Numbered from the stretch's first letter, positions 22,590 through 42,485 are shown. The stretch: DNA of 64,000 nucleotides from a bacterium (GCA_037200965.1 JBBCGK010000001.1:128001-192000), one strand, 5' to 3'. A program made the numbers and translations. The notes: a model not told the origin generated them from the letters alone.

Positions 22590-22900
22590 TCCGCGGTAGC
22601 TCAATGGTAGAGCAGCTCCCTGTGGCAAACGCAGCTTCCAAAGGAAACTTTGGTCGAAGAACGAGGTGAATTCGGGGAACCCCGAGCGAGAAATCGCGGG
22701 CAATCCCGAGCCAAGTCCCGAATGTCGGGAAAGGTGTAGAGACTATCTCGCAAGAGAGTACTTGGAAAGACGGATTAATCTTTGTCTTTCCCGGGAAGCG
22801 CCTCGCACCCTTCGGGGTGATGATATAGTCCATCCCTGCCAGTAATGGAAGGAGCGATGTAAGGAGTTGGTTCCAGGTTCGAGTCCTGGCCGCGGAGCCA
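22590..22900 (+). tRNA. tRNA-Asn(GUU) interrupted by a group I intron
   Basis: Exon 1 (22590-22623): acceptor TCCGCGG, D-arm GCTC-AATGGTA-GAGC, anticodon stem GCTCC plus CUGU. Exon 2 (22860-22900): UAA-GGAGT, variable TGGTT, T-arm CCAGG-TTCGAGT-CCTGG, acceptor CCGCGGA, discriminator G, CCA. Spliced anticodon loop CUGUUAA gives anticodon GUU. Confidence 0.75.
22624..22859 (+). ncRNA. group I intron (~236 nt) in the tRNA anticodon loop
   Basis: 5' exon ends in U; intron ends in G. An IGS-like GCAG (22631-22634) can pair with exon CUGU, including a U-G wobble. Conserved core R-like GTAGAGACTA (~22735-22745) and S-like GATATAGTCC (~22822-22831). Confidence 0.7.
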
Positions 22901-24502
22901 GATAGGATTAACATCAGCGAAAGCTGGTGTTTTTCCTTTATTGACGGGCTTTTTTGGCGGTTCGAAAGTTCTTTTTTCGTCTGTTTTTTCTCCCATCATC
23001 TGCATGACACGGTCGGAGATGATTTTGAAGGCTTTATGGTATGAAATCTCCACTTTCTTGCCGTTTATCGTCGAGTTCGAAAATAACAGCGACATCAAAA
23101 GCTTCTTGTCGTCGACCATCTCGAGCGTGCTCCGGTTTACGTAAATCTTCCGCGCCTCCTTGGCCATCTGCAAGAAAGTCGATCCCATGTCGAAGTACTT
23201 GAGATTAGCGTTCTTGTGCTTATTGAGGCTATCCATCACTTCTTCCTGCTCGAGCTTGTACTGCGCGTACTTTTTCTGATAGAAGTCCTCGCTTATTTTG
23301 CCGTCGATCTTATCGTCATATATTTTGTCGAGCCGTTGCGTCGCCGTCTGATATCGTCGCTCCAGCTCGCCGGTTGCCTTTTCCCTGAATTCTATTTCCT
23401 CGCTATGGCTTTCCTTGAGTGCTTCCTGAACCCAGGTGAGCATATGCTCGATGGCCTCGTCATGCTTCGAGCTTAACTGCTCGATATTTTCCATCACTTG
23501 CTCGTCGACCTGCTCCTGCCGGACATATTCTTTCTGCGTGCAGTTTTTATAGTGATTGCAGTGGCCATACCAATGGCCTTTCTGTATCTCCCACGTTACG
23601 CGGCCCTTGCACTCCTCGCACCGAAACACGTTTTTGAAAAGCGAGTTGTGCTTGTTGTATCTCGGCGTGCCGTTGCTGTGCATGATGTCTTGGCACCGCA
23701 TGAATAATTCTTTGGTGATAAGCGGCTCATGTCCGCCCTGGGCGACTTTGCCGTTCCAGCGGTTCATGCCGTAGTAGAACGGATCGCCAAGAAGCTGATG
23801 CACGCGCGAGTGACTTACCTTGTTGCCTCCGCGCGAGCGCATGCCGAGCTTGTACATCTCATCGGCCAGTTTCTTGGTCGAGTGTATATTCGTGGCATAG
23901 AGTTCGAACATTCTTTTGACGATCGGTGCCTTATCCGGATCGAGCACGTGGATTTTGTGTCCCTTCTCGCCGACGGTTTTGTAGCCGAGCGGCGGCTTGC
24001 TCGGCAGCCAGCCTTGCGCGAGCTTTTCTTTCTGGCCTTTCTTCACGTTCTCGGAAAGGAGTCGGATGTAGTACTCGGCCGTGGCTACTTTGACGCGCCA
24101 CATAAACCACTCGTGCGACTTGGAGTCCTTGTGGAGCGTACAGCTCTCTTTGACGAGGTGGATGGTGTGCTTTTCATCGGCCAGTATCCACTCGTCGATG
24201 ACCGGCACGTCGGCAAAGTTGCGCGTGAGGCGGTCGGTCGTCTCGACGAAGATCGTGTTGATCTTCGTCTTGGTCACGTATTCGAGCATCTCGTGGAATA
24301 TCTTGCGCTGGATTTTGCCAGCCGCCGATTCCTGGATGGCGAATACCTTGACCATCTCGTAGCCGTTGCGATCGGCATAGTCGTGCAAGAGCTTTTCCTG
24401 CGCCGGAAGCGAGTAACCGGTATCCTCCTGATCCTTGGATGACACGCGGGCGTACCCCACGGCTCGCAATGGTTGATTTTCTTGATTCATTGTCATGGTC
24501 AT
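22775..24502 (-). CDS. large serine recombinase (phage/ICE-type integrase)
   Basis: AVGYARVSSKDQ catalytic Ser region, recombinase domain, Cys-rich zinc-ribbon (CEECKG...CNHYKNC), coiled-coil C-terminus. Track ORF starts at a GTG (24550); an ATG at 24502 is the more likely start. The 3' ~126 nt run antisense through tRNA exon 2 and the intron 3' end. Confidence 0.85.
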   Translation of the reverse strand: MTMTMNQENQPLRAVGYARVSSKDQEDTGYSLPAQEKLLHDYADRNGYEMVKVFAIQESAAGKIQRKIFHEMLEYVTKTKINTIFVETTDRLTRNFADVPVIDEWILADEKHTIHLVKESCTLHKDSKSHEWFMWRVKVATAEYYIRLLSENVKKGQKEKLAQGWLPSKPPLGYKTVGEKGHKIHVLDPDKAPIVKRMFELYATNIHSTKKLADEMYKLGMRSRGGNKVSHSRVHQLLGDPFYYGMNRWNGKVAQGGHEPLITKELFMRCQDIMHSNGTPRYNKHNSLFKNVFRCEECKGRVTWEIQKGHWYGHCNHYKNCTQKEYVRQEQVDEQVMENIEQLSSKHDEAIEHMLTWVQEALKESHSEEIEFREKATGELERRYQTATQRLDKIYDDKIDGKISEDFYQKKYAQYKLEQEEVMDSLNKHKNANLKYFDMGSTFLQMAKEARKIYVNRSTLEMVDDKKLLMSLLFSNSTINGKKVEISYHKAFKIISDRVMQMMGEKTDEKRTFEPPKKPVNKGKTPAFADVNPIWLRGQDSNLEPTPYIAPSITGRDGLYHHPEGCEALPGKDKD

Positions 24503-24546
24503 AATTGCTAATAATTTGTTGGTTCGAATTCGACGTTCGGTACCAG

Positions 24547-24596
24547 ACACACCATATGCCTATTCGTTTGCGCTGCTAAGCCCGAGTTACCCACAT
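24547..24596. repeat. copy A of an imperfect ~50-60-nt repeat (TATGCCTATTCG...AAGCC...GTTACCCACAT)
   Basis: Shares blocks CCTATGCCTATTCG and GTTACCCACAT with 35475..35534; same orientation; immediately upstream of the intact recombinase gene. Confidence 0.5.
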
Positions 24597-26534: not shown

Positions 26535-26636
26535 CTTTAAGCCGTATTGCTTATTCTGGATAAGCTACTTGTGCTTAAGCTTAGTATATCATATAATGCA
26601 CTGGAAGTTAGCTTTAAACTAACTATAGGTAAGTAT

Positions 26637-27254
26637 ATGGATAATAAACCGACAAAAGGTCAATATGTAGAGGTCTTATTGAGATCTCCCAAAACCGTCT
26701 TTTCAATCAAAGACGTGGCTTTGTTATGGGGAGAAGAAGCTGAAAATGCTGTTCGCGTCAGATTAAACAGCTACGTAAAAAGCGGTAAGTTGATCCGAGT
26801 ACATCGCGGCTTTTATGCTAAAGACAAGAATTACAACCGTTCTGAATTAGCGACTGCGATCTACACTCCCTCTTACATCAGCTTTGAGTCTGTTTTAACT
26901 CGTGCCGGTATCAACTTTCAATACTACGGCAATATTTTTGTTGCTTCATACGTGACCAGAGAGATCGAAGCTGATGGTCAAAAAATCTCTTTCATCCGCA
27001 TGAAAGATTATGTCTTAAGTAACACTGCCGGCATCGAGCATACGGAAGGTATTGCCACAGCAACTAAGGAGCGCGCTTTCTTGGACCGGATTTATGTCAG
27101 CAAAGACTATCATTTCGATAATTTGGATGCTTTGGATTGGGATAAAGTCTTTGAGATGTTACCTATCTACCACAACAAGCGAATGGAAAAGAAAGTAAAG
27201 ACCTATCTCGAGCACTATAAAAGCAACCAGCCCGATAAAGCGAAAAACGTATGA
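26637..27254 (+). CDS. AbiEi-family antitoxin/transcriptional regulator
   Basis: N-terminal wHTH and ...SGKLIRVHRGFYA... typical of AbiEi; stop overlaps the AbiEii start. Confidence 0.6.
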   Translation: MDNKPTKGQYVEVLLRSPKTVFSIKDVALLWGEEAENAVRVRLNSYVKSGKLIRVHRGFYAKDKNYNRSELATAIYTPSYISFESVLTRAGINFQYYGNIFVASYVTREIEADGQKISFIRMKDYVLSNTAGIEHTEGIATATKERAFLDRIYVSKDYHFDNLDALDWDKVFEMLPIYHNKRMEKKVKTYLEHYKSNQPDKAKNV

Positions 27255-28285
27255 CTTTAGATTACTCAAAGCACAAAGCAATATTGCTCCAAATTCTCAA
27301 GGATATTTATTCCGATACTTCGATCGCTCCTCACTTGGGTTTCAAAGGCGGGACGGCCGCGCTTTTATTCTACGGACTCAATCGTAACTCGGTAGACTTG
27401 GACTTCGATCTGTTGGACGAAAGCAAAGAGGCAGAGGTCTTTGAGAAGATTCAGAAAATCACTGCGGCCTATGGAACGATTACCGATTCCTACATTAAAA
27501 AGTTCAATCTCCTGAATGTTATCTCTTACGCACCTGGAGCACAGAAGATAAAAGTCGAAATCAATCGCCGGAACTTTGGCTCGCGCTATGAGCTTAAGAC
27601 CTTGCTTGGTATCTCCATGCTGGTCATGGTGGAAGCTGATACATACGCCCACAAATTGATGGCCATGTACGAGCGCGTCGGTAAGACGAGCCGTGATATT
27701 TTCGACGTGTACTATTTCGAAAAGAAAGGCTGGGATATCAATAAAACTATTGTTGAGGATCGTTCCGGACTGTCATTCAAGGACACCCTCGCCAAGTGCA
27801 TCGATTTGCTGGAAAAGATGGATAACAAGCACATCTTGGATGGCTTGGGTGAATTGCTGACAGATCCGCAAAAAGATTGGGCCCGCGCCAAGCTCAAAGA
27901 AGAGACTATTTTCTTGCTCAAAGTAAAAATGGAAGGCTTGGGCAAGATTGATACCCTGCCGCCATATACTTCGGCCGATGTTGAAGCTATACAAACCATA
28001 CTCAATGATAAGTTCTTTAAGAACACTCCTTTTGCATGCGAGAAATTGACGGTTAAAAAGGATAAAGTGTTTTTCGAAAAGAACAGCTCTGACGAGGATA
28101 GCTACGGGTACGACATTGAGTGCGTGCTTTTGCAGGATGGTAAGAAGGTAGAAGTCTCGATCGATCCGATAACAAACAAGGTCGGCGCAGATCAAGTTGC
28201 CCATCTCATAGCACATACCGTTTGGGCAAAGCTGGATCAATCGATGACCAGTCAGCTTTGGAAGAATTTTCCAACCAACCTATAA
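27251..28285 (+). CDS. AbiEii/AbiGii-family nucleotidyltransferase toxin (DUF1814)
   Basis: GFKGGTAALLFYGLNRNSVDLDFDL, the hallmark NTase motif of AbiEii. Confidence 0.7.
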   Translation: MTLDYSKHKAILLQILKDIYSDTSIAPHLGFKGGTAALLFYGLNRNSVDLDFDLLDESKEAEVFEKIQKITAAYGTITDSYIKKFNLLNVISYAPGAQKIKVEINRRNFGSRYELKTLLGISMLVMVEADTYAHKLMAMYERVGKTSRDIFDVYYFEKKGWDINKTIVEDRSGLSFKDTLAKCIDLLEKMDNKHILDGLGELLTDPQKDWARAKLKEETIFLLKVKMEGLGKIDTLPPYTSADVEAIQTILNDKFFKNTPFACEKLTVKKDKVFFEKNSSDEDSYGYDIECVLLQDGKKVEVSIDPITNKVGADQVAHLIAHTVWAKLDQSMTSQLWKNFPTNL

Positions 28286-28289
28286 ATTT

Positions 28290-29360
28290 ATGCCAAAGGA
28301 AATCGCCAAAAAGTCATTGAATAAGAACTTGCACAAGGCAAGCGCCGCGAAGAAAGATGAGTTTTATACTCAGATTGTTGATATTGAAAAAGAGTTGAAA
28401 CACTACAAAGATCAATTCCGTGGCAAGGTAGTGTATTGCAACTGCGATGATCCATTTGAGAGCAACTTCTTTAAATATTTCGCAGGAAATTTCAATGCAC
28501 TCGGACTGAAAAGACTTATTGCCACTAGTTACAAGCCGTCTCCTATAGCCAATACGCAATTAGGGCTATTTGGCGACATCAAGGCCATAAACACGCCCAA
28601 GGGCCGTCCTAAGGTAACCGCGAACAAATTCATTATCAATGAAGTTGATGATATAGACGGCGATGGCGCATTTGACTTGCGTGATATTGCCGAGCAACTC
28701 AAGGCTAACAAAAACAATGAATGGGCTCCATTAGAGGGTGAAGGAGATTTTAGAAGTGAAGAAAGCATAGAACTGCTGAAGCAAGCTGATATTGTAGTAA
28801 CAAATCCGCCTTTTTCCTTGTTCCGCGAGTATGTCGCACAGCTAGTAGAACACAACAAAAAGTTTTTGATTCTAGGTGACCAAAATGCAGTAACCTATAA
28901 AGAAACCTTTGGCTTCATCAAAGAAAATAAACTATGGCATGGCTACGACAATGGTGGCACAAAATGGTTTCAGGTTCCTGACGATTATGACATTGAGACT
29001 GAATCAAGAATAAAAGTTGAGAATGGTATAAAGTTTTTCAGCATGGGTAGAATTGTGTGGTATACAAACCTCGAGACCACAAAACGTCACGAGAAAATAG
29101 TCTTGTATAAGAAATATACACCAGAGGAATTCCCTAAATATGATAATTCCGATGTTATAAACATCGATAAAGTCTCCGATATTCCGATGGATTATGACGG
29201 AGTGATGGGTGTACCAATTACTTTTGTTGATAAATATAGTCCAGCACAGTTTGAAATTTTGGGTATCGCTAATTCCGCAAGATGGATTGGTTACGAATGT
29301 TTTACCTTGATTAAAGGTAGGAAAATATATAATCGAATTTTAATTAAGCGTAAAAAATAA
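28290..29360 (+). CDS. putative N6-adenine DNA methyltransferase
   Basis: NPPF (VVTNPPFSLF) motif IV and upstream DEFYTQ; 5 nt after AbiEii and 1 nt before the next gene. Confidence 0.55.
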   Translation: MPKEIAKKSLNKNLHKASAAKKDEFYTQIVDIEKELKHYKDQFRGKVVYCNCDDPFESNFFKYFAGNFNALGLKRLIATSYKPSPIANTQLGLFGDIKAINTPKGRPKVTANKFIINEVDDIDGDGAFDLRDIAEQLKANKNNEWAPLEGEGDFRSEESIELLKQADIVVTNPPFSLFREYVAQLVEHNKKFLILGDQNAVTYKETFGFIKENKLWHGYDNGGTKWFQVPDDYDIETESRIKVENGIKFFSMGRIVWYTNLETTKRHEKIVLYKKYTPEEFPKYDNSDVINIDKVSDIPMDYDGVMGVPITFVDKYSPAQFEILGIANSARWIGYECFTLIKGRKIYNRILIKRKK

Positions 29361-29361
29361 T

Positions 29362-30465
29362 ATGAAAATTGATCTAAACAAAATTACTGTGCGGGAAGTC
29401 GTGAATGGCTACAAAGATGGCTCTGAGGAGGGCGTTGTTGCGTATGGTGGAAAGCTTGATGTGCGCCCGAAGTATCAGCGCGAATTCGTATACAAAGACA
29501 AACAGCGCGATGCGGTTATTGATACCGTTAGAAAAGGCTTCCCTCTCAACGTGATGTATTGGGTGAAAACCGATGACGGAAATTTTGAAGTACTTGACGG
29601 ACAGCAGAGGACAATCAGTCTAGGCCAGTATGTAAATGGCGACTTCTCGGTGGATTTCAATGGTCGCCTCGCTATGTTCCATAACCTTACCAAAGAGGAG
29701 CAGGAACAAATTCTGAACTACGAATTGATGATTTATTTCTGCGAGGGAAACGATAAAGAGAAACTTGATTGGTTTAAGACAATCAATATTGCCGGAGAGC
29801 GTTTAACCGACCAAGAGCTACGCAACGCTGTATATACCGGCCCGTGGCTTTCTGATGCAAAGCTAAAATTCAGCAAATCAAACTGTGCGGCGTATTTGTT
29901 GGCAAACGATGGCGGACAGTTAATTAGCGGCTCGCCGATCCGGCAAGAGTATTTGGAAACCGCACTCTCGTGGATAAATAACGATGAAGTGGCCAATTAC
30001 ATGGCCAAACATCAACACGACGAGAATGCAGAGGAATTGTGGGCTTACTTCCAAAGCGTTATTGCATGGGTACGAAAGACGTTCCCAAATTACCGCAAGG
30101 AAATGACGAGTGTGAATTGGGGTGAGCTATACAACGAATTCAAAGACAAGAAATTGAATGAGACTAAGCTCGAAGCCGAAGTTAAGAAGTTGATGCAAGA
30201 CGAGGACGTGACGAAAAAGTCCGGTATCTACCCTTATGTCTTAACGGGACAGGAGCGAGAGCTTTCTATCCGCGCTTTTACCGACAAGATGAAGCGTGAA
30301 GCATACGAGCGGCAAGATGGCATCTGCCCGTTTTGCAAGAAAAAATATGACATCTCAGAAATGGAGGCCGATCATATTGCTCCATGGCATGAAGGTGGAA
30401 AGACTACGGCCGAAAATTGTCAGATGCTCTGCAAACAAGACAACCGGACGAAGTCTGGAAAATAA
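29362..30465 (+). CDS. DUF262 (ParB-like DGQQR NTPase/nuclease) plus C-terminal HNH endonuclease protein (GmrSD-like)
   Basis: DGQQR motif (LDGQQRT) and HNH motif DHIAPWHEGGKTTAENCQMLCKQDN. Confidence 0.75.
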   Translation: MKIDLNKITVREVVNGYKDGSEEGVVAYGGKLDVRPKYQREFVYKDKQRDAVIDTVRKGFPLNVMYWVKTDDGNFEVLDGQQRTISLGQYVNGDFSVDFNGRLAMFHNLTKEEQEQILNYELMIYFCEGNDKEKLDWFKTINIAGERLTDQELRNAVYTGPWLSDAKLKFSKSNCAAYLLANDGGQLISGSPIRQEYLETALSWINNDEVANYMAKHQHDENAEELWAYFQSVIAWVRKTFPNYRKEMTSVNWGELYNEFKDKKLNETKLEAEVKKLMQDEDVTKKSGIYPYVLTGQERELSIRAFTDKMKREAYERQDGICPFCKKKYDISEMEADHIAPWHEGGKTTAENCQMLCKQDNRTKSGK

Positions 30466-30482: not shown

Positions 30483-32966
30483 ATGAAAATCATCCGAGCT
30501 ATACAATTTTTCTTTCGTAGGATTTCATGGAGACAGAGAACCTCTCCCTCCTTTGCTTTTGAAGTGGACAAAAAACCGAACTGGCTCGTCTATGCTTGGG
30601 GTGTCTTTGCCGGCTTCTTTTACAGCATCTTTCAGCGACGACGCGAGTCATTAAGGGTACTTTACCGCAATCAGGAACGCCGGAAGACTGAGTACACCAT
30701 ACCGATGCAGATCGTGCGGCAGTCTATGGGTACGATCTTGGTTCTAATACTGGCACTGGTCGGAGTAACCCTCGCTGATTGGGGCGTCGAGAAGCTCGCA
30801 AATCTACTCTCTCAGGTGCAGGCCGGCTGGTTTATAGCTTTCGCCGCACACTTTAATTTCTTTACGATTCCCGACAAAGAATTCTTTAAGCTCGTGCTTG
30901 AGATATCTATTGGCGCGATCTCCGCCATCCTCGGACTCTTATTTGCTTTATACGCGGTCGGTCTCCAGCTCACGACCGATAAGTACTCGTCTAAGGTGTC
31001 CGATTACGTCAATCAGGAAACCGTCGGCAATTTCTTTTTCAAACTCCTCGTCTTTACTGATATCTTTGCGATTGCCGTCTTGCTCCGTATTCAGATTCTC
31101 GCGCTTCCGTCACCGATCAGCTTCATTGCCGTTGTCGTTCTAGTAGTTATCTGCTTGCTTGGCATCATTGTTTTCAAGAATCACTACATTCTCACCATCA
31201 AGCCGAAGAACCTTTTTGAGAGGTTGCAGTCCGACATAAAGACGAGCATCCGGCTTGCCTCGGATCGGACCCGGTATTCCTATAAAAGCTGGAGCATTGT
31301 GCAGACTTCGCGCGTGCGAACGCAGGATCATCTCTCAATACTCAAAACTCTCTTTGAAGATCTCTGGCACGCCGAAAATTGGAACGACGTGATTTACACG
31401 CCGATGGTGCTTGCAAACTTGATCACCGACTACGCCAAGCGAAAGAAATATATCGACAGAGAGCGTGGCTGGTGGTTCCCGCAAACGCAGGTGGAGGTCA
31501 AGGCAAACAGCATGTCTACGCTCACCCTGAAGCTGAATTTCGAGCTTCAGGGCAAAGGGCCTCTGCGTATAGGTAGCCCAGACTATTTGTGGTTCGAGAA
31601 CGGTATTTTCGACATTCTCAAAGCGGTAGAGTCTCGTGTTGGAACTGCGCCGCAGGATACTCATCTGCTCAAATACGTCATTGATTTTTATCAGACCGCA
31701 CTTGCTGGCGACTACGAAAAAGATGAGTACAGCCGCTATCAGAAAGCAGTCGCGGGTCTATATGAGAATCAGGAGACCGACGCTTTCGAGAAATATCTCG
31801 ATGGCTTCTTTGCTTTGTATGAGAGAGTGCAAACCGACGACGAGCTGGGCGCGTATCTCAACGCTTACTTTGCGATCGGGCTGACTCTTATCGACGGCTT
31901 CGATTACGCCAAGTATCAGGAGGTAATAAAATCGCTCATCGGCGCAGACGGCCAGCTCACTCGCACCCGTGAGGAGCTTGCTCGGCTCGATCTGCCCGGA
32001 GTGTTTTATAACCAAATCCTCGACTACTGGGATCGCCTCGATCTTGAAGTCCAGTGTGAGGGACGCGTTATAACGCCGCAAGACCGGCTCGAAAAGGAAA
32101 CGCTCGACGATGCCCATGCAAAGGAAAAGCAGTACTTCGCCAAATTCTTTGAGAAGCTGATTACGCACCACAACACCGTTCTCCAAGACCTCTACCAGAA
32201 AGGAAAACATAAGGAGCTTGCGATGTTCATCAAGGCTCGCTTCGAGTGGATCAGTCGCTTGCTTTATATCAACAAGGTTGCTCTGGCCGACGAGTATGGC
32301 GCGAAGATCGCCGGTGCTGGCGTTTACCTTCCATTTCTGCCAAAGCAGATACTTCTCGACTCGGAGTTTTGGGAAGAACTTGAAAAGACTCTATTCCCAT
32401 CAGTCATTGAAAATTGCCCAACGCTTTTTAAGGTGTTGTCCGGATTGCTCACGCTCATGTTGCCAGTCATCAATGCCGACGAGAAAAATGTCGACAACAT
32501 CATGTATCGCAATCGCCTCGGTCTCATTCTTGGCGGATTCGTATACCTCGTCTGCGAATTCAGGCAGGATTACAGCCTGATGATCGAGTACGTGCAAACG
32601 ATTGAAGTTGCGTACCAGCCAGGCCAGTTCGTCAAAGCAATGGAGGTACTCTCGAAGCCGAAGGAAGTCGGAGGTCTCGACCTCACGCTCAAGCTCATAA
32701 ACTGGGAGCTTACTCGCTACCATCACTGGTTCGGCGAAATCCTCGGCCAGATATCGGAGCTTCCTAAGACCTACGATAACGTCCGTGTCTATTCCGGCTT
32801 GCAAGAGGTCGCAGACCATCCGAGCAAGTTCATCCGTGAGTTGAGCTACCGGCCGTACCAGCCGGAGGAAGAATGCGCGGAGGCATTTGTCGAGTGGGCA
32901 AAGAAGCGAGATGCTATCCGACAATTGGTCGAAGTGCTTAAGAAAGTTCAAGAGAAAAAGATATGA
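30483..32966 (+). CDS. large (827 aa) membrane-anchored protein of unknown function
   Basis: ~4 TM helices in residues ~80-230, then ~600-aa soluble region with no recognisable motif; low GC. Confidence 0.5.
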   Translation: MKIIRAIQFFFRRISWRQRTSPSFAFEVDKKPNWLVYAWGVFAGFFYSIFQRRRESLRVLYRNQERRKTEYTIPMQIVRQSMGTILVLILALVGVTLADWGVEKLANLLSQVQAGWFIAFAAHFNFFTIPDKEFFKLVLEISIGAISAILGLLFALYAVGLQLTTDKYSSKVSDYVNQETVGNFFFKLLVFTDIFAIAVLLRIQILALPSPISFIAVVVLVVICLLGIIVFKNHYILTIKPKNLFERLQSDIKTSIRLASDRTRYSYKSWSIVQTSRVRTQDHLSILKTLFEDLWHAENWNDVIYTPMVLANLITDYAKRKKYIDRERGWWFPQTQVEVKANSMSTLTLKLNFELQGKGPLRIGSPDYLWFENGIFDILKAVESRVGTAPQDTHLLKYVIDFYQTALAGDYEKDEYSRYQKAVAGLYENQETDAFEKYLDGFFALYERVQTDDELGAYLNAYFAIGLTLIDGFDYAKYQEVIKSLIGADGQLTRTREELARLDLPGVFYNQILDYWDRLDLEVQCEGRVITPQDRLEKETLDDAHAKEKQYFAKFFEKLITHHNTVLQDLYQKGKHKELAMFIKARFEWISRLLYINKVALADEYGAKIAGAGVYLPFLPKQILLDSEFWEELEKTLFPSVIENCPTLFKVLSGLLTLMLPVINADEKNVDNIMYRNRLGLILGGFVYLVCEFRQDYSLMIEYVQTIEVAYQPGQFVKAMEVLSKPKEVGGLDLTLKLINWELTRYHHWFGEILGQISELPKTYDNVRVYSGLQEVADHPSKFIRELSYRPYQPEEECAEAFVEWAKKRDAIRQLVEVLKKVQEKKI

Positions 32967-34066
32967 GACGACGCGCTTACAAACAAAGAGTGAAAGGCTA
33001 TGTGTTCGATGATCCGTTCCTCGGCTACATTCAAGGCCGCGACCGGCTAGAGAAGGCGTCATGGAACGCAATGGAACTAAGCAACGAGACCGACTCTGTA
33101 CGGTACTCGCTCTTTCCGTTGCGCGATATACCGGTGGCGGATCGTCCCGGCTATGTGACTCACGAACGCAATTACTTCAGCATCGAGTGCGATGATCCAG
33201 TCTTGAAAAAAGACCTCGAGATGTATTTCACCGACGAGCATTCGTTCTATCGGGATGGCCTGTACGGTCAGGGCGATGTGCTAGGAGGCTTTTTGGAGAG
33301 CATCGCGCACGAGCTGTTTGTGGTCGGCGATTCATTCCGCATGATCGAATGGGAGGAGGTCGATATCAAAGGCCGGAAGTATCAATTTCCAGTCGACTTT
33401 GAATATCTCAGGAACGAGACGATGAAAGTGCGCCGCAAGGGAGGGTTGATCGTAGGTTATCGGCAAAAGTACAGCCTCTTTACCTATCTCAAGGAGAAGC
33501 GATTCAAGGGATACGAGGATAAAGAGAAGCCGCGATCGTTTGAGTTTGAAAAAGAGGAGGTTGTGTACTGCAAGTATCCGTTTGCTAAAAAGTCGCCGAC
33601 GGCGCAGAGCATCAAATACCTTAAGCCAATCAAGAAGTTCTGGCAGTTCGGCATTGATCAATCGAAGAGTGGTGTCGAGGTAGAAAATCATTATCTGCCG
33701 CTTGAGCGAGCGCGGTACACCACCTATTCGCGAGAGAAACGGAAGTACGATATCGCTCGTGGAAAGATACGCACCATTTTCAATTACTTGATGGAAACGA
33801 ACGGGCCTAAGCTCACGCAGTATTACGATATATACACCGTGATCCGCTACAAAAAATTCCTCAATGACTTTAGGGATTATTTGGTACGAGAATTCAACGA
33901 GCAGGTGCTGGCGATCGTGGCAAAAAGGAATGGCTTTACTTCCGTCCCTAAACTCGTCTATAGTGGCTTTCTCTCTAATGCCGAACTGGATGCCGCACTA
34001 CAGGGTTACACAGACGGCACGATCACGTTTGATCAGATTGTTCAGCAAATAGTAAAAAAGTCTTAA
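32963..34066 (+). CDS. hypothetical protein (367 aa), translationally coupled
   Basis: ATGA overlap with the upstream gene; no recognisable motif. Confidence 0.45.
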   Translation: MRRRAYKQRVKGYVFDDPFLGYIQGRDRLEKASWNAMELSNETDSVRYSLFPLRDIPVADRPGYVTHERNYFSIECDDPVLKKDLEMYFTDEHSFYRDGLYGQGDVLGGFLESIAHELFVVGDSFRMIEWEEVDIKGRKYQFPVDFEYLRNETMKVRRKGGLIVGYRQKYSLFTYLKEKRFKGYEDKEKPRSFEFEKEEVVYCKYPFAKKSPTAQSIKYLKPIKKFWQFGIDQSKSGVEVENHYLPLERARYTTYSREKRKYDIARGKIRTIFNYLMETNGPKLTQYYDIYTVIRYKKFLNDFRDYLVREFNEQVLAIVAKRNGFTSVPKLVYSGFLSNAELDAALQGYTDGTITFDQIVQQIVKKS

Positions 34067-34072
34067 AAAGAT

Positions 34073-34666
34073 ATGGGAGAAAAAGATAAACAAATTCTAA
34101 AAGATTCCGCGTTGGTCATTGCCGACCAGATAGCGTCCGCATTGCCGGGATTAAATATTGCATGGGGTTTAAGCAAGGCATTGTATGGTGCTGGTCTAAA
34201 ACTTCGTGAACAAAGAGCATTGGAATGGATTGAAATGGTTAGAGATAATCCCTCGGCATTTACTGAAACAATTATGCAAGATGCGAAATTCCAAGACGGA
34301 TTTGTGTACGCGTTGGAGCGTTATATCAGAGAGAAAAACGATAACAAAAGAAAAGCGATGCGCTCCGTATTTCTTGGGTTTGCGCTATCTCCGAATCAGG
34401 ACACTTTTGAGCTAGAGAGGATGTACCATGTATTAGGTATTCTTAGTGCAGAGGATATGATCGTTTTGAAGGATGTCGATTTTACACGAACCGATTTTCA
34501 TCAAGTGTATGAGCAGACTACCGACAAAAATGAGAACGTCTACAATTTGGTGAATGCCGGAATCTTGATGTCTGACTATTCATCTCGCATTGGCCCCATA
34601 GCCGCGCCATTTATAAAAGTAACTGCGTTTGGGAAAAGTTTTGTCGGATTCTTAAAATCAACATGA
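34073..34666 (+). CDS. hypothetical protein (197 aa)
   Basis: 6-nt gap after the upstream gene; stop overlaps the start of the DUF2726 gene. Confidence 0.4.
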   Translation: MGEKDKQILKDSALVIADQIASALPGLNIAWGLSKALYGAGLKLREQRALEWIEMVRDNPSAFTETIMQDAKFQDGFVYALERYIREKNDNKRKAMRSVFLGFALSPNQDTFELERMYHVLGILSAEDMIVLKDVDFTRTDFHQVYEQTTDKNENVYNLVNAGILMSDYSSRIGPIAAPFIKVTAFGKSFVGFLKST

Positions 34667-35175
34667 CAATCTTTTATATAATTATAGGCATCATTATAGT
34701 CATCGCAGTAGCACTCGCAATTTCCCGTGGAGGTTTTGCTGACGTGGCGGAGAAAGCTAAGTATCGCTATAACCGCAAGAATTTCTTCCTTACTCGAGCA
34801 GAGCACGAATGCTATGACGCTCTCGTTGCGGCAGTCGGCGCGGAGTATCGCATTTTCGCACAGGTGCATTTGCCAACACTGGTCGATCACACGGTTCGGG
34901 GGCAGGATTGGCGCGCGGCTCTGGCTCACATCAATCGGAAGTCTGTTGACTTCGTGCTATGCGATAAGGCGTATCTCTCTCCAAAGCTTGCTATTGAGCT
35001 TGATGATAAGTCCCATGAGCGACCCGATCGGCAAGAGCGCGATCGCGAAGTCGAGCGGATTCTGCGCGAAGCCGCCGTGCCGCTTTTGAGGCTAGAGAAT
35101 CATGGCCATTTTGCTCCTGACGAACTAAAAAGATTGATCGAGAACGCTCTGACACCGTCTACTCCAACAACTTAA
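34663..35175 (+). CDS. DUF2726 (NERD/PD-(D/E)xK-like nuclease fold) protein with N-terminal TM helix
   Basis: FLTRAEHECYDAL...RKSVDFVLCDK...AIELDDKSH, characteristic of DUF2726. GC content rises sharply relative to the upstream genes. Confidence 0.6.
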   Translation: MTIFYIIIGIIIVIAVALAISRGGFADVAEKAKYRYNRKNFFLTRAEHECYDALVAAVGAEYRIFAQVHLPTLVDHTVRGQDWRAALAHINRKSVDFVLCDKAYLSPKLAIELDDKSHERPDRQERDREVERILREAAVPLLRLENHGHFAPDELKRLIENALTPSTPTT

Positions 35176-35470
35176 AACGGCGCAGTTCTTTCTGCGCCGT
35201 TTCTATGTCCTCGAGGACTTTGAGATAGATTCGCTTTGTTTTCTTTGATTTCGGATTGCGCTCGGCAAAGAGGACGTCGTCATCCTCGACGAAGCCGGCG
35301 AGCGAGATGTACGCGCCCGCGAGATGTCTCATGCGATCTTTGAGCGCCGCCTTCAGTTTGGCTTTCGGCTCCGGAAGCAAAGAGAGCGGATTGAGCATGC
35401 CTTTCCGGTATTTGAGTCGTATATCTTTCGCAGCGCGGATAGCTGCGTCGATGTCCTCGGTATCTTCCAT
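35159..35470 (-). CDS. hypothetical small protein
   Basis: 103-aa ORF convergent with the DUF2726 gene; the 60-nt repeat lies in its upstream region. Confidence 0.3.
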   Translation of the reverse strand: MEDTEDIDAAIRAAKDIRLKYRKGMLNPLSLLPEPKAKLKAALKDRMRHLAGAYISLAGFVEDDDVLFAERNPKSKKTKRIYLKVLEDIETAQKELRRFKLLE

Positions 35471-39329: not shown

Positions 39330-39647
39330 ATGCAAAACTGCATCATCATCCACGGCTGCCCCTCGAACGTCGAGAAGGCGATGAATCCCGAGACTCGGAC
39401 GCATGATAAGCATTGGATTCCATGGGTTAAGAACACGCTTACAAAATTCGGAATTCCGACCGAGGCTCCGCTCATGCCCGAACCGTGGGAGCCGTCATAC
39501 GAGAAATTCAAGGCAGAGTTGCGCCCGCTCCACTACCCTCTAATCGCGAGCCGCCTCTGCGGCAAGATGCCCAGCGAGCGTAGTGATGAAGGTCTTGAGA
39601 CTGGTGAGCTCGCTCATGTCCGAGTAGTCGCCGGTGTCCTTGGCTGA
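39330..39647 (+). pseudogene. truncated RBBP9/YdeN-like serine-hydrolase N-terminal fragment
   Basis: MQNCIIIHGCPS...HWIPWVKNTLTK... resembles the N-terminus of RBBP9/YdeN-family alpha/beta hydrolases. The nucleophile motif is absent or degenerate, and the frame runs into the convergent REase gene. Confidence 0.35.
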
Positions 39648-40274
39648 CTGCGGCGAGAGCATGATGCACGCCGACGTGTAAAGCTGTTCCTGCACGAGCT
39701 TTTTGCAGAGGATGTTGTAGCGATCGGCATAGGATGCGCCTTTGAATTCCGGAAGCAATGGGAAGTGCGGCGAATTATCCGTCACTGGCGAGCGCGAGCC
39801 CGGCGCGTCTTCGAGGAGCATGAGCCAGCCGACGAATGGCTTCGGTTGTTCCCCGAACGCTCCTTCCCGGTACGCGGTCCACAGGTCGTGCGCGGTCCCG
39901 ATTGCTTCTTCTATGCGATTATTGAAATTATTGCCGAACGAGCCGACCTGCGACTTGAATTCGAGCGCGGCGACGAGACGGCCTTCGCTGAGTATGAGGA
40001 AATCCCATTGCTTAGTTGGTCTGAAGAAGCCCGGTAGGGTGACGAGACGCCCGCTATGAATGACCGTCGCATCTGTAAGGCCATTTGCTTCGGCAAGATC
40101 TGCCATCAGCGTGGCGAAGCCATCCATGTTCTTACCCGCAGTGACTGCGCCGCGGGTTCCTTGGTCTACAGTTCCGGATTCCTCCTGTTGCCGGACCGCA
40201 ACACTGCGATTGCCCCAGAACAGTTCGACTGCCTGTTTAGCACGCTTCTCGTATTGCGCGAGGTCTATGGCCAT
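39540..40274 (-). CDS. type II restriction endonuclease, PD-(D/E)xK fold (possibly XhoI/PaeR7I-like)
   Basis: [20 protein letters not shown] gives D...E-x-K. Sits 5 nt downstream of a gamma-class N6A MTase in the same orientation. Confidence 0.5.
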
Positions 40275-40279
40275 ACGTT

Positions 40280-41986
40280 TTATGCCTTGATGGTAGCACG
40301 CTCGGATGGAGAGAGAGAAAACAAGGCGGATACGGCTTCGTCGCGGGCTTCAGAGTCATCACTGCCCGCTGCCGCGCGAAGCGCCTGCTGCAGATCCTTG
40401 GAGACATCGCTCCACCGCGGCAACCGGATACGCCGCAGATACTGTGCCTGAAACCGGAGACAGTTCCCGTGCATGCGCGTCGAGTAGGTCTCGATGAATA
40501 CGCGCGCGATGCCAGAGAGCAAGACGGCACGGAGCGCTTGAAGATCCCATTCGTCGGAGGTGATGTAGTAAAGATTGTGATGAGGATACAGCTTGCCCTC
40601 GTCGTAGACGATATGGGCATCGCCCTTGATATCTGGGATCAGGAGTTTCGGCTTCTGCACGAGCTCCGGATAGATACGGTCGATCGTGCGGTACCAAGCG
40701 CTCGGGTTCTTCTTGGAGACGTGCCGGTTCCTGATCGCCACTTCGTGCTGTCCGAGGTATGCGCGCAGCCGGGGATACTTCTCAAGCGAGACCGGCTTCC
40801 CGTCATTCCCGAATGGATTCACGACGCCCAGTCCGCGCCATGCTACCGTACCCGTCTGAATATCCTTGGTCATTACGAGCGGAAGTTTGCACTCGGCCTC
40901 GACATCGAGCGTATCGAAGGGCGCGATGAACACATCGTCTGCCCCCGTCGCAACGCCGATACCCACCTTGCATCCCGTTTCCTCCAGCGTTGGGAAATCA
41001 CTCTCAAGGCGGCGAATGAGCGCGAGTGTGTCCGACTCCTCAAGCGTCCATGGGTCGCCGCCGGTGATGGTCGTTACTTTTACGGACTCATGGTCGGCCA
41101 ATGCGCCTCGCACGAGCGCGCGGGCCAGATCCTCTAGCGCAGATGCCTCAATCTCCGGGCGCTTCGCCACATAGGTCGGACCGGCCGACTCGCGGGCGAT
41201 TACGGTGATTGCCGGATATGCGATCACTTCCGAATGGAAGGCTGGGGTACCGACCATGTCGACGTATGTCCGCATGTGGAATCGCTTCGCGACAAGTTCG
41301 CGGAGGGGACCTCCGTAGCGATTCTTCATCCAGCGGTCAGCGCAGATAAAACCGAGCGTGCCGCCCTCATCGAGGAGCTTCAGCGAGTATTCGATAAAAG
41401 GGATAAAAATATCTGCTCGATCGTAAATCGTCTCGTACCGGCGACGGTACTCGGCCATCAGCACATTGGGTACCATCTCTTGCCTGATGTACGGCGGATT
41501 TCCGACAACATGAGTAAAGGAGTGCCCGAATGGCGTGAGCAGGAAGTCGCCTTGGACGAGCCAAGCCCCAAGGATTTCTTCGCTTTGATCGATAGTTAGT
41601 CCGTTCTGGAGGAGAATCGCTCGCACTTCCTTCCTCGTCTTATCAAATGACCCCATGTGGAGCTCCACCCCGCGGATACTGTCTCTCAAGAGATCTGCAC
41701 TGGGCTTTATGTTCCTAGTCTTGAGCGAGGACATGAGCCGCTTCACCGCTGGTATGAGGAAATCTCCATGTCCGAACGACGGTTCGAGAAGACGTGCCGC
41801 GTACAGTTCATTGGAAGGCACATAACCGACGAGGTCGAGTATAAAATCCACCACTTCCGACCGCGTGAAAATGGCCCCGCGGTCGTCGGTTCCTGCTGCT
41901 GCAAACTCCTCTATGGCAGACGCGACTGGAGAAAGGCCGGGGAGGAATTCCTGCGCGAGCTGTCCTTTTAGCGTGCCAACTCTCAT
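40280..41986 (-). CDS. N6-adenine DNA methyltransferase, gamma class (Eco57I/TaqI-like)
   Basis: Motif [13 protein letters not shown]; N-terminal AdoMet region [11 protein letters not shown]. Start placed at MRVGTLKG (ATG 41986), preceded by an AT-rich stretch. Confidence 0.8.
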
Positions 41987-42143
41987 GTGTTTAATAATAC
42001 CATTCCCGGGAGTGAGAGAGCGATTTCGAGGTATTGAACCATTACGAAGGACTTGACACAAGTATCTACTTATGATAGAGTCTGTCCTGGTAGTAGATTC
42101 CATTCCGGCATCTCCCCAGCCACGAACCTTACAGGAGGCTTCC

Positions 42144-42485
42144 ATGGCACGTTCAATCATCCTCGAGTCCGACCCCGAAGCACGCGTTGGTTTCAACGCG
42201 CAGGAAGGAGCGGGACACGAGAAGACCGAATCCCGCGTCGTCATCGACATCAGCGGTTACAAGCTGGTGCATGACACGGAAACGGAAGGAGGCCTGCATG
42301 TCGTGCAGCTCTACCTCACCGTTCCTCAAATGGCACAGCTTGTGCGGATGTTTTTCTTGGAGATTGCTAAGGAAAACATCTACGCACAGCTCCTTCGTCG
42401 GCTCCTCCGGCAACGGTGGAAGGTCATGACGAATGGTGCCGCCAAGCACATGGGTTGGATGCCGCGATACGATCAAGGCGTCTGA
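42144..42485 (+). CDS. hypothetical protein
   Basis: AGGAGG RBS 6-7 nt upstream of the ATG at 42144; followed by a canonical terminator. Confidence 0.45.

Follow-up and report, generated by a model that had tools for sequence, protein, structure and literature searches.

The locus and its gene array

The question raised by this locus is what the four co-directional genes between positions 30483 and 35175 do, and whether all four belong to one system. The DNA analysed, here called the window, is a 64-kb stretch of a bacterial genome (GCA_037200965.1 JBBCGK010000001.1:128001-192000), and all positions are counted from its start. The features on which the argument depends are as follows.

22775..24550, - strand: large serine recombinase (Resolvase + Recombinase + Zn_ribbon_recom), left end of the island
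26547/26637-27254, + strand: AbiEi (Pfam/PADLOC, 3.9e-58)
27251-28285, + strand: AbiEii (Pfam/PADLOC, 2.3e-77)
28290-29360, + strand: EcoRI-type N6A MTase (MTase_II, 2.3e-118, Pfam/PADLOC)
29362-30465, + strand: GmrSD_N(DUF262)/ParB-HNH type II REase (REase_II, 1e-146, Pfam/PADLOC)
30483..32966, + strand: gene 1 (core), 827-aa membrane protein
32963..34066, + strand: gene 2 (core), 367-aa soluble protein with a phage portal fold
34073..34666, + strand: gene 3 (variable accessory), 197-aa soluble protein of low GC (0.41)
34663..35175, + strand: gene 4 (variable accessory), 170-aa DUF2726 protein with one TM helix
35176..35201, + strand: perfect 10-bp hairpin, AACGGCGCAG-TTCTTT-CTGCGCCGTT, read from the sequence

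An initial annotation had described genes 1-4 as a tightly coupled four-gene module. All four ORFs were recovered with the lengths it had given, as were the junctions: a 17-nt gap after the REase gene, a 4-nt ATGA overlap between genes 1 and 2, a 6-nt gap, and a second 4-nt ATGA overlap between genes 3 and 4. The AbiE, MTase and DUF262-HNH REase genes named upstream (26547..30465) were all matched as well, and they lie in one co-directional array with genes 1-4, the successive distances among the eight genes from AbiEi to gene 4 being -4, 4, 1, 17, -4, 6 and -4 nt. The junctions are tight, as had been said, but they do not set these four genes apart, since the same-spaced array includes independent systems (AbiE and type II R-M).

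The proposed setting, a defence island on a mobile element, agrees with the large serine recombinase found at the island's left end; over the stretch from ~21 kb to ~38 kb of the window, GC is down to about 0.4-0.5 from 0.62. The GC contents of genes 1-4 are 0.497, 0.484, 0.411 and 0.507, respectively. The DUF2726 gene is thus not markedly richer in GC than the other three, as had been thought (0.507 vs. 0.497 for gene 1); the compositional outlier is gene 3, with a GC3 of 0.40 vs. 0.61. The hairpin, which lies immediately 3' of the gene 4 stop codon and lacks a proper T-tract, was not called in the terminator scan; it is a possible end of the co-directional array. Promoters were found in the number expected by chance, and terminators only modestly above it.

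A conserved two-gene cassette

The core unit is a rare, strongly conserved two-gene cassette of 3.6 kb, consisting of genes 1 and 2. Among the loci for which upstream sequence is available, a gene 1 homolog overlaps the start of the gene 2 homolog in 44 of 44, the overlap measuring 4-26 nt, and sequence identity declines in parallel for both genes, from about 95% to about 33%. The dN/dS ratios are 0.03-0.10 for gene 1 and 0.056-0.064 for gene 2; both genes are under strong purifying selection, and with ratios this low they are real genes, not chance ORFs.

The cassette is carried mostly by Patescibacteria (CPR), uncultivated ultra-small bacteria, on mobile or integrative elements. Its distribution is patchy and rare, across phyla, with 6 loci among 185,579 species genomes. 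About 113 representatives make up the family. No match to it was found in 50,697 phage records (searched with tblastn) or in 72,556 plasmids, megablast and tblastn of the module against E. coli genomes, plasmids and phages likewise gave none, and pattern scans of IMG/VR found no gene 2; one cassette locus does sit on an IMG/VR contig.

The neighbourhoods bear out the expected association with defence: R-M, Abi, TIR, TA or PDC genes lie within a few kb of the pair in at least 17 of about 21 non-redundant architectures. Judged from these raw neighbourhood counts, the cassette belongs to defence islands in the operational sense of Makarova/Doron/Gao. In about 11 architectures the pair lies directly downstream of co-oriented R-M genes, with gaps of 2-41 nt and in one case a 4-nt overlap, and these R-M genes are of four kinds -- type I HsdR, type II ParB-HNH REase, type III Res, and a PLD-SNF2 helicase with an Eco57I-type MTase. 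CPR genomes being compact, short gaps mean little by themselves; co-transcription with always-expressed R-M genes would fit host protection better than late morphogenesis. AbiE and the MTase/REase pair, which are upstream of the cassette in the window, are downstream of it in L049, L020 and L035, so that the cassette acts as a module in its own right alongside other defence modules.

Next after the pair there is in most cases a nuclease gene or some other gene of immune type (PDDEXK_1/Cas4-like, DUF4268, NERD, RNase H + PDDEXK, TIR-TPR or DUF2726). The DUF4268 gene is PDC-S11 of PADLOC (1.6e-122), and in L024 the third gene is this stand-alone candidate. The idea of a conserved sensor with swappable effectors is weakened, and unproven, because several of the third-position genes are independent, PDC-S11 being one and gene 3, which also occurs alone, another.

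Gene 2 has a portal fold

Gene 2 is a portal by fold, not by sequence-family membership. It has the wing β-region, the long stem and wing helices and the crown of the portals of tailed phages, GTAs and herpesviruses (HK97/SPP1-type), yet it has no match in Pfam, PHROGs, NCBIfam or PADLOC-DB v2, and profile searches against PDB sequences gave nothing useful, that for gene 2 having no match at E<=10; a sub-threshold Phage_portal match (E 0.02) was seen in one of 41 distant relatives. It differs from those portals also in its setting, since in the window it is not beside terminase or capsid genes, and it is always in an operon with a large membrane protein, among defence genes. The fold is a key feature that the initial annotation had overlooked.

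A further difference appears to lie in the clip region, which in real portals is the docking site for terminase and adaptor. As far as secondary structure shows, the loops joining the three long helices of gene 2 comprise only about 10-14 residues, so the clip domain may be vestigial, which would weaken the terminase-decoy version of the mechanism proposed below. Gene 2 presumably still forms a ring. Its invariant residues include Y288, D289, K298 and R304. To our knowledge portals are not in use outside viruses, gene transfer agents and satellites, and a literature search returned nothing relevant on portal-like, portal-decoy or non-viral portal homologs.

Gene 1 is a membrane protein with a partial DUF2254 match

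Gene 1 begins with an amphipathic N-terminus followed by TM helices at 84-102, 141-159, 188-206 and 212-230, in agreement with the four or so N-terminal helices predicted for it. Downstream of these lie a small α/β domain (~334-423) and an all-helical repeat domain (432-826). The N-terminal four-TM region matches Pfam DUF2254 (PF10011) at 41.4 bits, above the gathering threshold of 28.8, but only over profile positions 13-173 of 368, the TM half, and the same half alone is matched by the distant homolog in L053; the remaining about 560 aa of gene 1 form another domain. We know of no function for DUF2254, and nothing tying it to defence was found in the literature searched. Conservation in gene 1 is highest over the TM2-TM3 segment, which suggests that its membrane role goes beyond anchoring. 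Invariant residues of TM2 include G151, Y157 and G160. A viral origin for gene 1 was considered and rejected, a Foldseek search of BFVD being empty below E 0.01. No Walker A motif is present in the core, and no enzymatic or nucleotide-binding domain is recognisable in it, a point against the device proposed below.

Genes 1-3 had been said to belong to no recognised family. This holds for PADLOC-DB v2, NCBIfam and PHROGs, in which none of the three has a match, but not for gene 1, given its DUF2254 region, nor for gene 2, given its fold. HMM searches thus turned up DUF2254 and no described defence system, and the locus stands as a candidate undescribed system.

Genes 3 and 4 as probable accessories

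Gene 3 belongs to a separate, larger family in Patescibacteria, with at least 192 clusters, and is found downstream of gene 2 only in three closely related lineages, those of the window (with L012 and L013), L021 and L049. It occurs without genes 1, 2 or 4 on other elements (L014-L018), and in L021 and L049 it pairs with a different four-TM protein, which in L020, L028 and L035 pairs instead with a 451-aa protein. Two weak hints to the identity of gene 3 are at noise level and were not accepted as assignments: LmuC of Lamassu (PADLOC, E 0.0076, 13.9 bits), with no LmuA or LmuB among the neighbours in PADLOC-DB v2.0.0, and Abi_alpha (PF14337), matched by 3 of 34 family members (best E 0.018) and not by gene 3 of the window itself. 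Nor is it the third gene of other loci: compared by BLASTP, it has no similarity to the ~190-aa genes found in L006 and L003.

Gene 4 is, as had been annotated, a TM-anchored DUF2726 protein, with a TM helix at 2-20 and a Pfam match of 6.9e-29 over profile positions 5-124 of 126, along with weak matches to MTES_1575 and DUF559. The motifs VDFVL and IELDDKSH are present, and a nuclease of the PD-(D/E)xK superfamily, Vsr/DUF559-like, is predicted from the sequence. PADLOC-DB v2.0.0 contains no match for gene 4, and the literature search gave nothing relevant on DUF2726 in defence.

The reading of the four genes as a single system, in which the TM-anchored DUF2726 nuclease is the effector and genes 1-3 act as sensor and adaptor, accords with their tight or overlapping junctions in the window genome, with the recurrence of the same four genes in L012 and L013, and with the frequency of nucleases downstream of the pair elsewhere. 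L012 and L013, however, carry the same sequence as the window, so that DUF2726 adjoins the pair in this one lineage and in no other, while gene 3 follows it in only two others, where it is paired with the different four-TM protein, and elsewhere stands alone; the base composition of gene 3 also differs, and the AbiE and R-M genes are joined by junctions equally tight. The comparative data have largely overturned the four-gene system, which we now consider very doubtful. Gene 3 and the DUF2726 nuclease may rather be interchangeable neighbours or optional accessories outside the core, a tentative view that forms part of the joint best explanation given next.

Proposed function and alternatives

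Genes 1 and 2 probably constitute an undescribed anti-phage or anti-mobile-element device; the earlier candidate is kept, with the pair in place of the four genes as its unit and without DUF2726 as its defining effector. Our best explanation, to which we give a probability of about 0.45, is that the cassette is defence cargo of integrative elements in which an exapted portal and its membrane partner act as a portal mimic against tailed phages. The two genes would form a self-contained, translationally coupled cassette. Gene 2, as an exapted viral portal protein, would presumably assemble into a ring and be tethered to the cytoplasmic membrane by the helical-repeat domain of gene 1, which would also supply the four-helix membrane core, itself highly conserved. 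When a tailed phage infects the cell, its proteins for head assembly or DNA packaging (scaffold, capsid or terminase-DNA) would mistake the complex for a portal, and assembly or packaging would be led off into an unproductive complex at the membrane; gene 1 may also open its membrane core and so bring about abortive infection. A broad decoy is not obviously workable, since the contacts of portals with their partners are usually phage-specific. The related idea that cells or mobile elements have domesticated a viral portal as an immune core, in which a ring on a platform of 12 x 4 TM helices would capture the head-assembly or packaging machinery of the infecting phage at the membrane, or thread its DNA there, seems less probable.

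The portal fold could also be taken at face value, with gene 2 a working portal and gene 1 a membrane assembly factor, both serving the morphogenesis or packaging of a satellite-like or virus-like element that could pack its own DNA into helper-phage capsids. Serine recombinases lie less than 10 kb away in many loci, one locus is on the IMG/VR contig, and three diverged loci, L053 (IMGVR_UViG_3300033402_000781), L031 (Ga0210057_1004518) and L023 (JBPPMJ010000003.1), have intact terS/terL homologs 1-4 kb upstream of the pair on the other strand; this last point counts against the portal-mimic defence reading. The gene 2 copies of these three loci are 33-73% identical to that of the window. Against a packaging role, terS/terL homologs are missing from the 64-kb window and from the remaining ~19 architectures, and no locus showed a capsid, protease or tail gene; the pair sits in a tight co-directional array with R-M and Abi genes rather than in a late operon, and the family is missing from the phage records and gene 2 from the IMG/VR scans described above. 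The 26.6 kb of the IMG/VR contig that were read hold no structural genes either, but a diversity-generating retroelement (RT + bAvd), two recombinases and, by eye, a ClpB-like ATPase and a MoxR-like AAA ATPase with a vWA-like partner. As to the traits of PICI-like phage satellites, the window has an integrase, no PrimPol and no terS; PrimPol or terS/terL is present in related elements. A role in packaging is on balance unlikely. Less likely again is a DNA conduit, in which a portal-like ring on a gene 1 membrane ring would be a gated channel moving DNA across the membrane, for DNA uptake in CPR nucleotide salvage, export of the element or entry exclusion, and the neighbouring R-M systems and nucleases would process that DNA. 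In its favour, portals work as rings for DNA translocation, conservation in gene 1 peaks in the membrane core, the gene overlap implies 1:1 production of the two proteins, R-M or nuclease genes flank the pair on both sides, and in the Chloroflexota locus L050 the pair has Tad-pilus genes on one side and type IV secretion genes on the other. Against this, no ATPase or motor is encoded in or beside the core, the pore in gene 1 is only putative, and a cassette with so few loci among the species genomes is too rare and too mobile for core physiology.

Relation to known systems and significance

A close likeness to the proposed portal mimic, and also a parallel for the packaging alternative, is phage T4, whose gp20 portal initiates the head at the membrane together with gp40, a membrane-bound initiator. 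In both cases a portal ring would be kept at the cytoplasmic membrane by a membrane protein, but gp40 is a small phage-encoded chaperone within a complete virus, whereas gene 1, at 827 aa, combines a partial DUF2254 match with a helical-repeat domain, and no viral relative of it was detected. Kiwa (KwaAB) and RexAB, and the larger Zorya, resemble the cassette in combining a multi-TM protein with a soluble partner, in their defence-island location and in their overlapping genes; they show no homology to gene 1 or 2, for both of which PADLOC-DB v2 is empty, and have no portal fold. Avs4 and other sensors, which are STAND NTPases binding phage portal or terminase, share a conflict centred on the phage head-packaging machinery; they bind the portal of the phage, while in the present case the portal-like protein comes from the host or element itself, and there is no NTPase. 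The cf-PICIs, capsid-forming phage satellites with their own portal gene, are similar as integrative elements with a recombinase and a portal-type gene, and in the three loci with terS/terL nearby. The cassette elements differ in having no capsid, protease or connector genes and in the co-operonic arrangement of the pair with R-M, and the membrane partner has no satellite counterpart. We know of no described cellular system that joins a portal-fold protein with a dedicated membrane protein.

Should a domesticated viral portal indeed be the core of an immune device, no earlier defence system would have been built on a portal mimic, and it would rank as a main non-CRISPR, non-R-M defence of CPR bacteria. 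Should the cassette instead serve the mobile element, it would represent a new kind of satellite or DNA-transfer apparatus. If it is protective, it would embody a new principle of immunity, mimicry of a viral structural hub by the host in place of sensing, and would offer a starting point for understanding how Patescibacteria, which are poorly understood and mostly uncultivated, cope with phages.

Gene array and surroundings

The four co-directional ORFs proposed as a defence module lie in the window as the initial annotation described them, with the same coordinates, lengths and strand, and with a 17-nt gap after the upstream REase, then an ATGA overlap, a 6-nt gap and another ATGA overlap.

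Features of the window
22775-24550 (-), large serine recombinase
27251-28285, AbiEii protein, 344 aa
30483-32966 (+), gene 1, 827 aa, four-TM membrane protein
32963-34066 (+), gene 2, 367 aa, phage portal fold
34073-34666 (+), gene 3, 197 aa
34663-35175 (+), gene 4, 170 aa, DUF2726 protein
35159-35470 (-), putative ORF, 103 aa
35837-36319 (-), ORF, 160 aa
38683-39315 (+), dCMP/cytidine deaminase
39540-40274 (-), XhoI-family REase
40280-42250 (-), Eco57I/TaqI_C-type MTase

The upstream neighbours are, as annotated, AbiEi, AbiEii, an EcoRI-type MTase and a GmrSD_N(DUF262)-HNH type II REase; together with the serine recombinase and a drop in GC across ~21-38 kb, they mark an integrative island, in agreement with the mobile-element setting first suggested. 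The tight junctions had been taken to set the four genes apart, but all eight genes of the array, AbiEi through gene 4, are spaced just as tightly (gaps of -4, 4, 1, 17, -4, 6 and -4 nt), and because the array also holds well-known independent systems, such spacing singles out no four-gene unit. Nor is the DUF2726 gene set apart by a higher GC content, as had been thought: the values for genes 1-4 are 0.497, 0.484, 0.411 and 0.507, so that gene 3 is the outlier.

AbiEii models span only residues ~5-227 of that protein, the C-terminal extension of ~115 aa having no assigned family. The 103-aa putative ORF, which overlaps the 3' end of gene 4 on the opposite strand and spans a 10-bp hairpin (35176-35201), is called as a gene in L012 (a fetched locus carrying the window's own sequence) and matches no family. 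The 160-aa ORF groups with the C-terminal region of large serine recombinases and lacks the catalytic domain; it is probably a truncated recombinase, from an older element or at the island's right border just past gene 4. Downstream of the island, as annotated from the identical L012, the deaminase gene precedes a second restriction-modification (R-M) system, the XhoI-family REase and its MTase.

A conserved two-gene cassette

Gene 2 homologs are very rare: a search of 5.8 billion proteins gave 39 clusters and a profile search 113 representatives (50% clustering), with 6 loci among 185,579 species genomes and 25 on metagenome contigs; the 43 clusters of gene 1 homologs form a matching set. In all 44 fetched loci with sequence upstream of the gene 2 homolog (~21 non-redundant architectures), a gene 1 homolog of ~790-850 aa lies immediately 5' of it, overlapping by 4-26 nt. 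Identities of the two drop in step (for example 94/94, 83/83, 49/49, 40/40 and 38/35 percent), and the linkage extends to the most distant relatives: L050 from Chloroflexota, L051/L052, and the IMG/VR locus L053 (hhalign probability 100, E 4e-52). Values of dN/dS, 0.03-0.10 for gene 1 and 0.056-0.064 for gene 2 once comparisons with saturated synonymous sites are excluded, indicate strong purifying selection. The hosts are mostly Patescibacteria (CPR) MAGs, plus Scalindua and Chloroflexota; the phage, plasmid and E. coli collections searched gave zero matches.

The gene order of L022, from a 'Bdellovibrionales' bin, is that of the Moranbacteria/metagenome loci L008-L011 and L037, which suggests a binning error rather than genuine occurrence outside CPR. 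The most distant copy, in a Chloroflexota MAG (L050 1-21158), is flanked on one side by a Tad-pilus operon (Flp, TadE) and on the other by a type IV secretion/conjugation module (TrbL, SLT, pilin, PrgI, TraC, VirB4-like, primase, relaxase), with no R-M system near it in that locus.

Genes following gene 2

In most loci a co-directional gene follows gene 2 after 0-26 nt, but its identity differs from locus to locus; variation at the third position is thus independent of that at the fourth.

Occupants after gene 2
PDDEXK_1/Cas4-like nuclease: L004/L005, L025, L026, L036
RNase H with Top1-type zinc ribbon, then PDDEXK_1: L038
DUF4268 (PADLOC PDC-S11, 1.6e-122), then multi-TM protein: L024/L043
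Weak PDDEXK_5 match: L041
Zinc-ribbon protein: L003, L023
451-aa unknown, then four-TM protein: L020, L028, L035
Gene 3, then the same four-TM protein: L021, L049
Gene 3, then DUF2726: window
304-aa unknown: L027
TIR-TPR (larger gap): Scalindua
NERD (larger gap): Doudnabacteria
C5-MTase with HATPase (larger gap): Moranbacteria

Gene 4 is, as first annotated, a DUF2726 protein by its sequence, with one predicted TM-helix anchor and PD-(D/E)xK superfamily motifs. A DUF2726 protein after gene 2 is found only in the window lineage, and gene 3 in that position only there and in L021 and L049. The gene 3 family, to which weak, sub-threshold LmuC and Abi_alpha matches allow no assignment, is larger than that of the pair (at least 192 clusters) and also has members in places that lack genes 1, 2 and 4, among them serine-recombinase/PrimPol elements. 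Some other occupants are known stand-alone genes. The best description of the third- and fourth-position genes is as neighbours or optional accessories rather than defining parts, and the four-gene system with a DUF2726 effector, as first proposed, is largely refuted by these comparative data and now seems highly improbable.

In three Amesbacteria loci (L015 and L018, 8001-8588; L016, 6662-7249), the co-directional genes of an integrative element end with a gene 3 homolog (74% identical), far from any gene 1, 2 or 4; all three elements carry a PrimPol-AAA_25 gene, and L015 and L018 a serine recombinase. In L017 (8001-8588) the homolog lies amid ordinary metabolic genes at a contig end, and in L014 (8001-8582) a 52% homolog lies amid small genes beside TaqI-type R-M remnants. 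The conserved four-TM protein (164-170 aa, no family; L020 12460-12972, L021 11695-12189, L028 7016-7528, L049 814-1308) overlaps either gene 3 or the unrelated 451-aa protein by 4 nt, and with this partner is a further shuffling two-gene unit directly 3' of the cassette.

Defence genes and element layout

The pair usually lies 2-41 nt behind co-oriented R-M genes of variable kind.

R-M genes upstream of the pair
Type II ParB-HNH REase: window
Type III Res: L004; by clustering also L023, L025, L026
Type I HsdR: L019, L046; L008 family (two small genes between)
PLD-SNF2 helicase and Eco57I-type MTase: L006, L039

AbiE, RadC, toxin-antitoxin genes and serine recombinases are common nearby, in a raw count without formal background correction and with several neighbours annotated by BLAST clustering with Pfam-annotated genes or by motif reading. 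In L049, L020 and L035 the cassette has the window's AbiE and MTase/REase modules on its other flank, and thus is itself shuffled as a single unit among the defence modules.

An IMG/VR scan with the gene 1 profile gave one contig (L053), on which the pair lies between a serine recombinase and a leftward block of, moving away from the pair, three small ORFs, two DNA methylases, terS, terL and a DUF4352 gene. Directly adjoining cassette and recombinase is a diversity-generating retroelement (L053 12045-13395, L055 7605-9644) with an RVT_1 reverse transcriptase, bAvd accessory and a 679-aa possible target. L031 carries homologs of this terS/terL on the other strand, at a distance of 1-4 kb from the pair (terL identity 41%), and L023 has a terS homolog at its edge.

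terS/terL homologs
L053 812-2732 (-)
L031 2555-4340 (-)
L023 41-361 (-)

These homologs are intact and adjoin DNA methylases and a serine recombinase, in three elements with diverged copies of the cassette, which may represent a satellite-like element family of CPR bacteria. A common layout seems to recur among the elements: a leftward backbone, in which the recombinase is joined by terS/terL, PrimPol or small DUF5659-type genes, and a rightward cargo operon (R-M, Abi, cassette, variable gene).

Possible function and novelty

The pair is translationally coupled, has no enzymatic domain and is housed in constitutive-type defence operons; the most conserved parts are the TM2-TM3 core of gene 1 and the long helices of the gene 2 portal fold. 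Our best-supported reading, though tentative (probability about 0.45), is a membrane-tethered portal mimic: gene 2, held at the membrane, would imitate the portal and disturb the assembly of phage heads or the packaging of DNA, and gene 1 might also permeabilise the membrane. Ring formation, contact between the two proteins, a phage target and protection itself are what we infer here. The loops between the three long helices of gene 2 are ~10-14 residues, so the clip domain, which in real portals docks terminase, may be vestigial; this would make a simple terminase decoy less likely than contacts through the wing or a new function.

Given the terS/terL loci and the shared layout, gene 2 possibly descends from, or still serves as, the element's own portal. 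No capsid, protease, tail or second portal gene is present in the 26.6 kb read of the IMG/VR contig or in any other locus, and the window has neither terS nor terL; a role of the pair in packaging or morphogenesis for a satellite-like element is considered unlikely. Less likely again is that this portal-fold protein and its membrane partner form a DNA conduit serving uptake, export or exclusion.

By structure, gene 2 is a member of the portal superfamily, but by sequence and viral context it is not, and gene 1 matches DUF2254 only in part. PADLOC-DB v2 gave no match to a described defence system, and full-text literature searches found nothing linking DUF2254 to defence and no description of a non-viral portal homolog in a defence setting. 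Functional analogies can be drawn to membrane and soluble protein pairs such as Kiwa, to portal sensing by Avs4, to the T4 gp20-gp40 membrane initiator and to capsid-forming satellites, but all differ in kind and no described system is matched; the gene 1-gene 2 cassette, with functions proposed computationally, is therefore rated categorically new.
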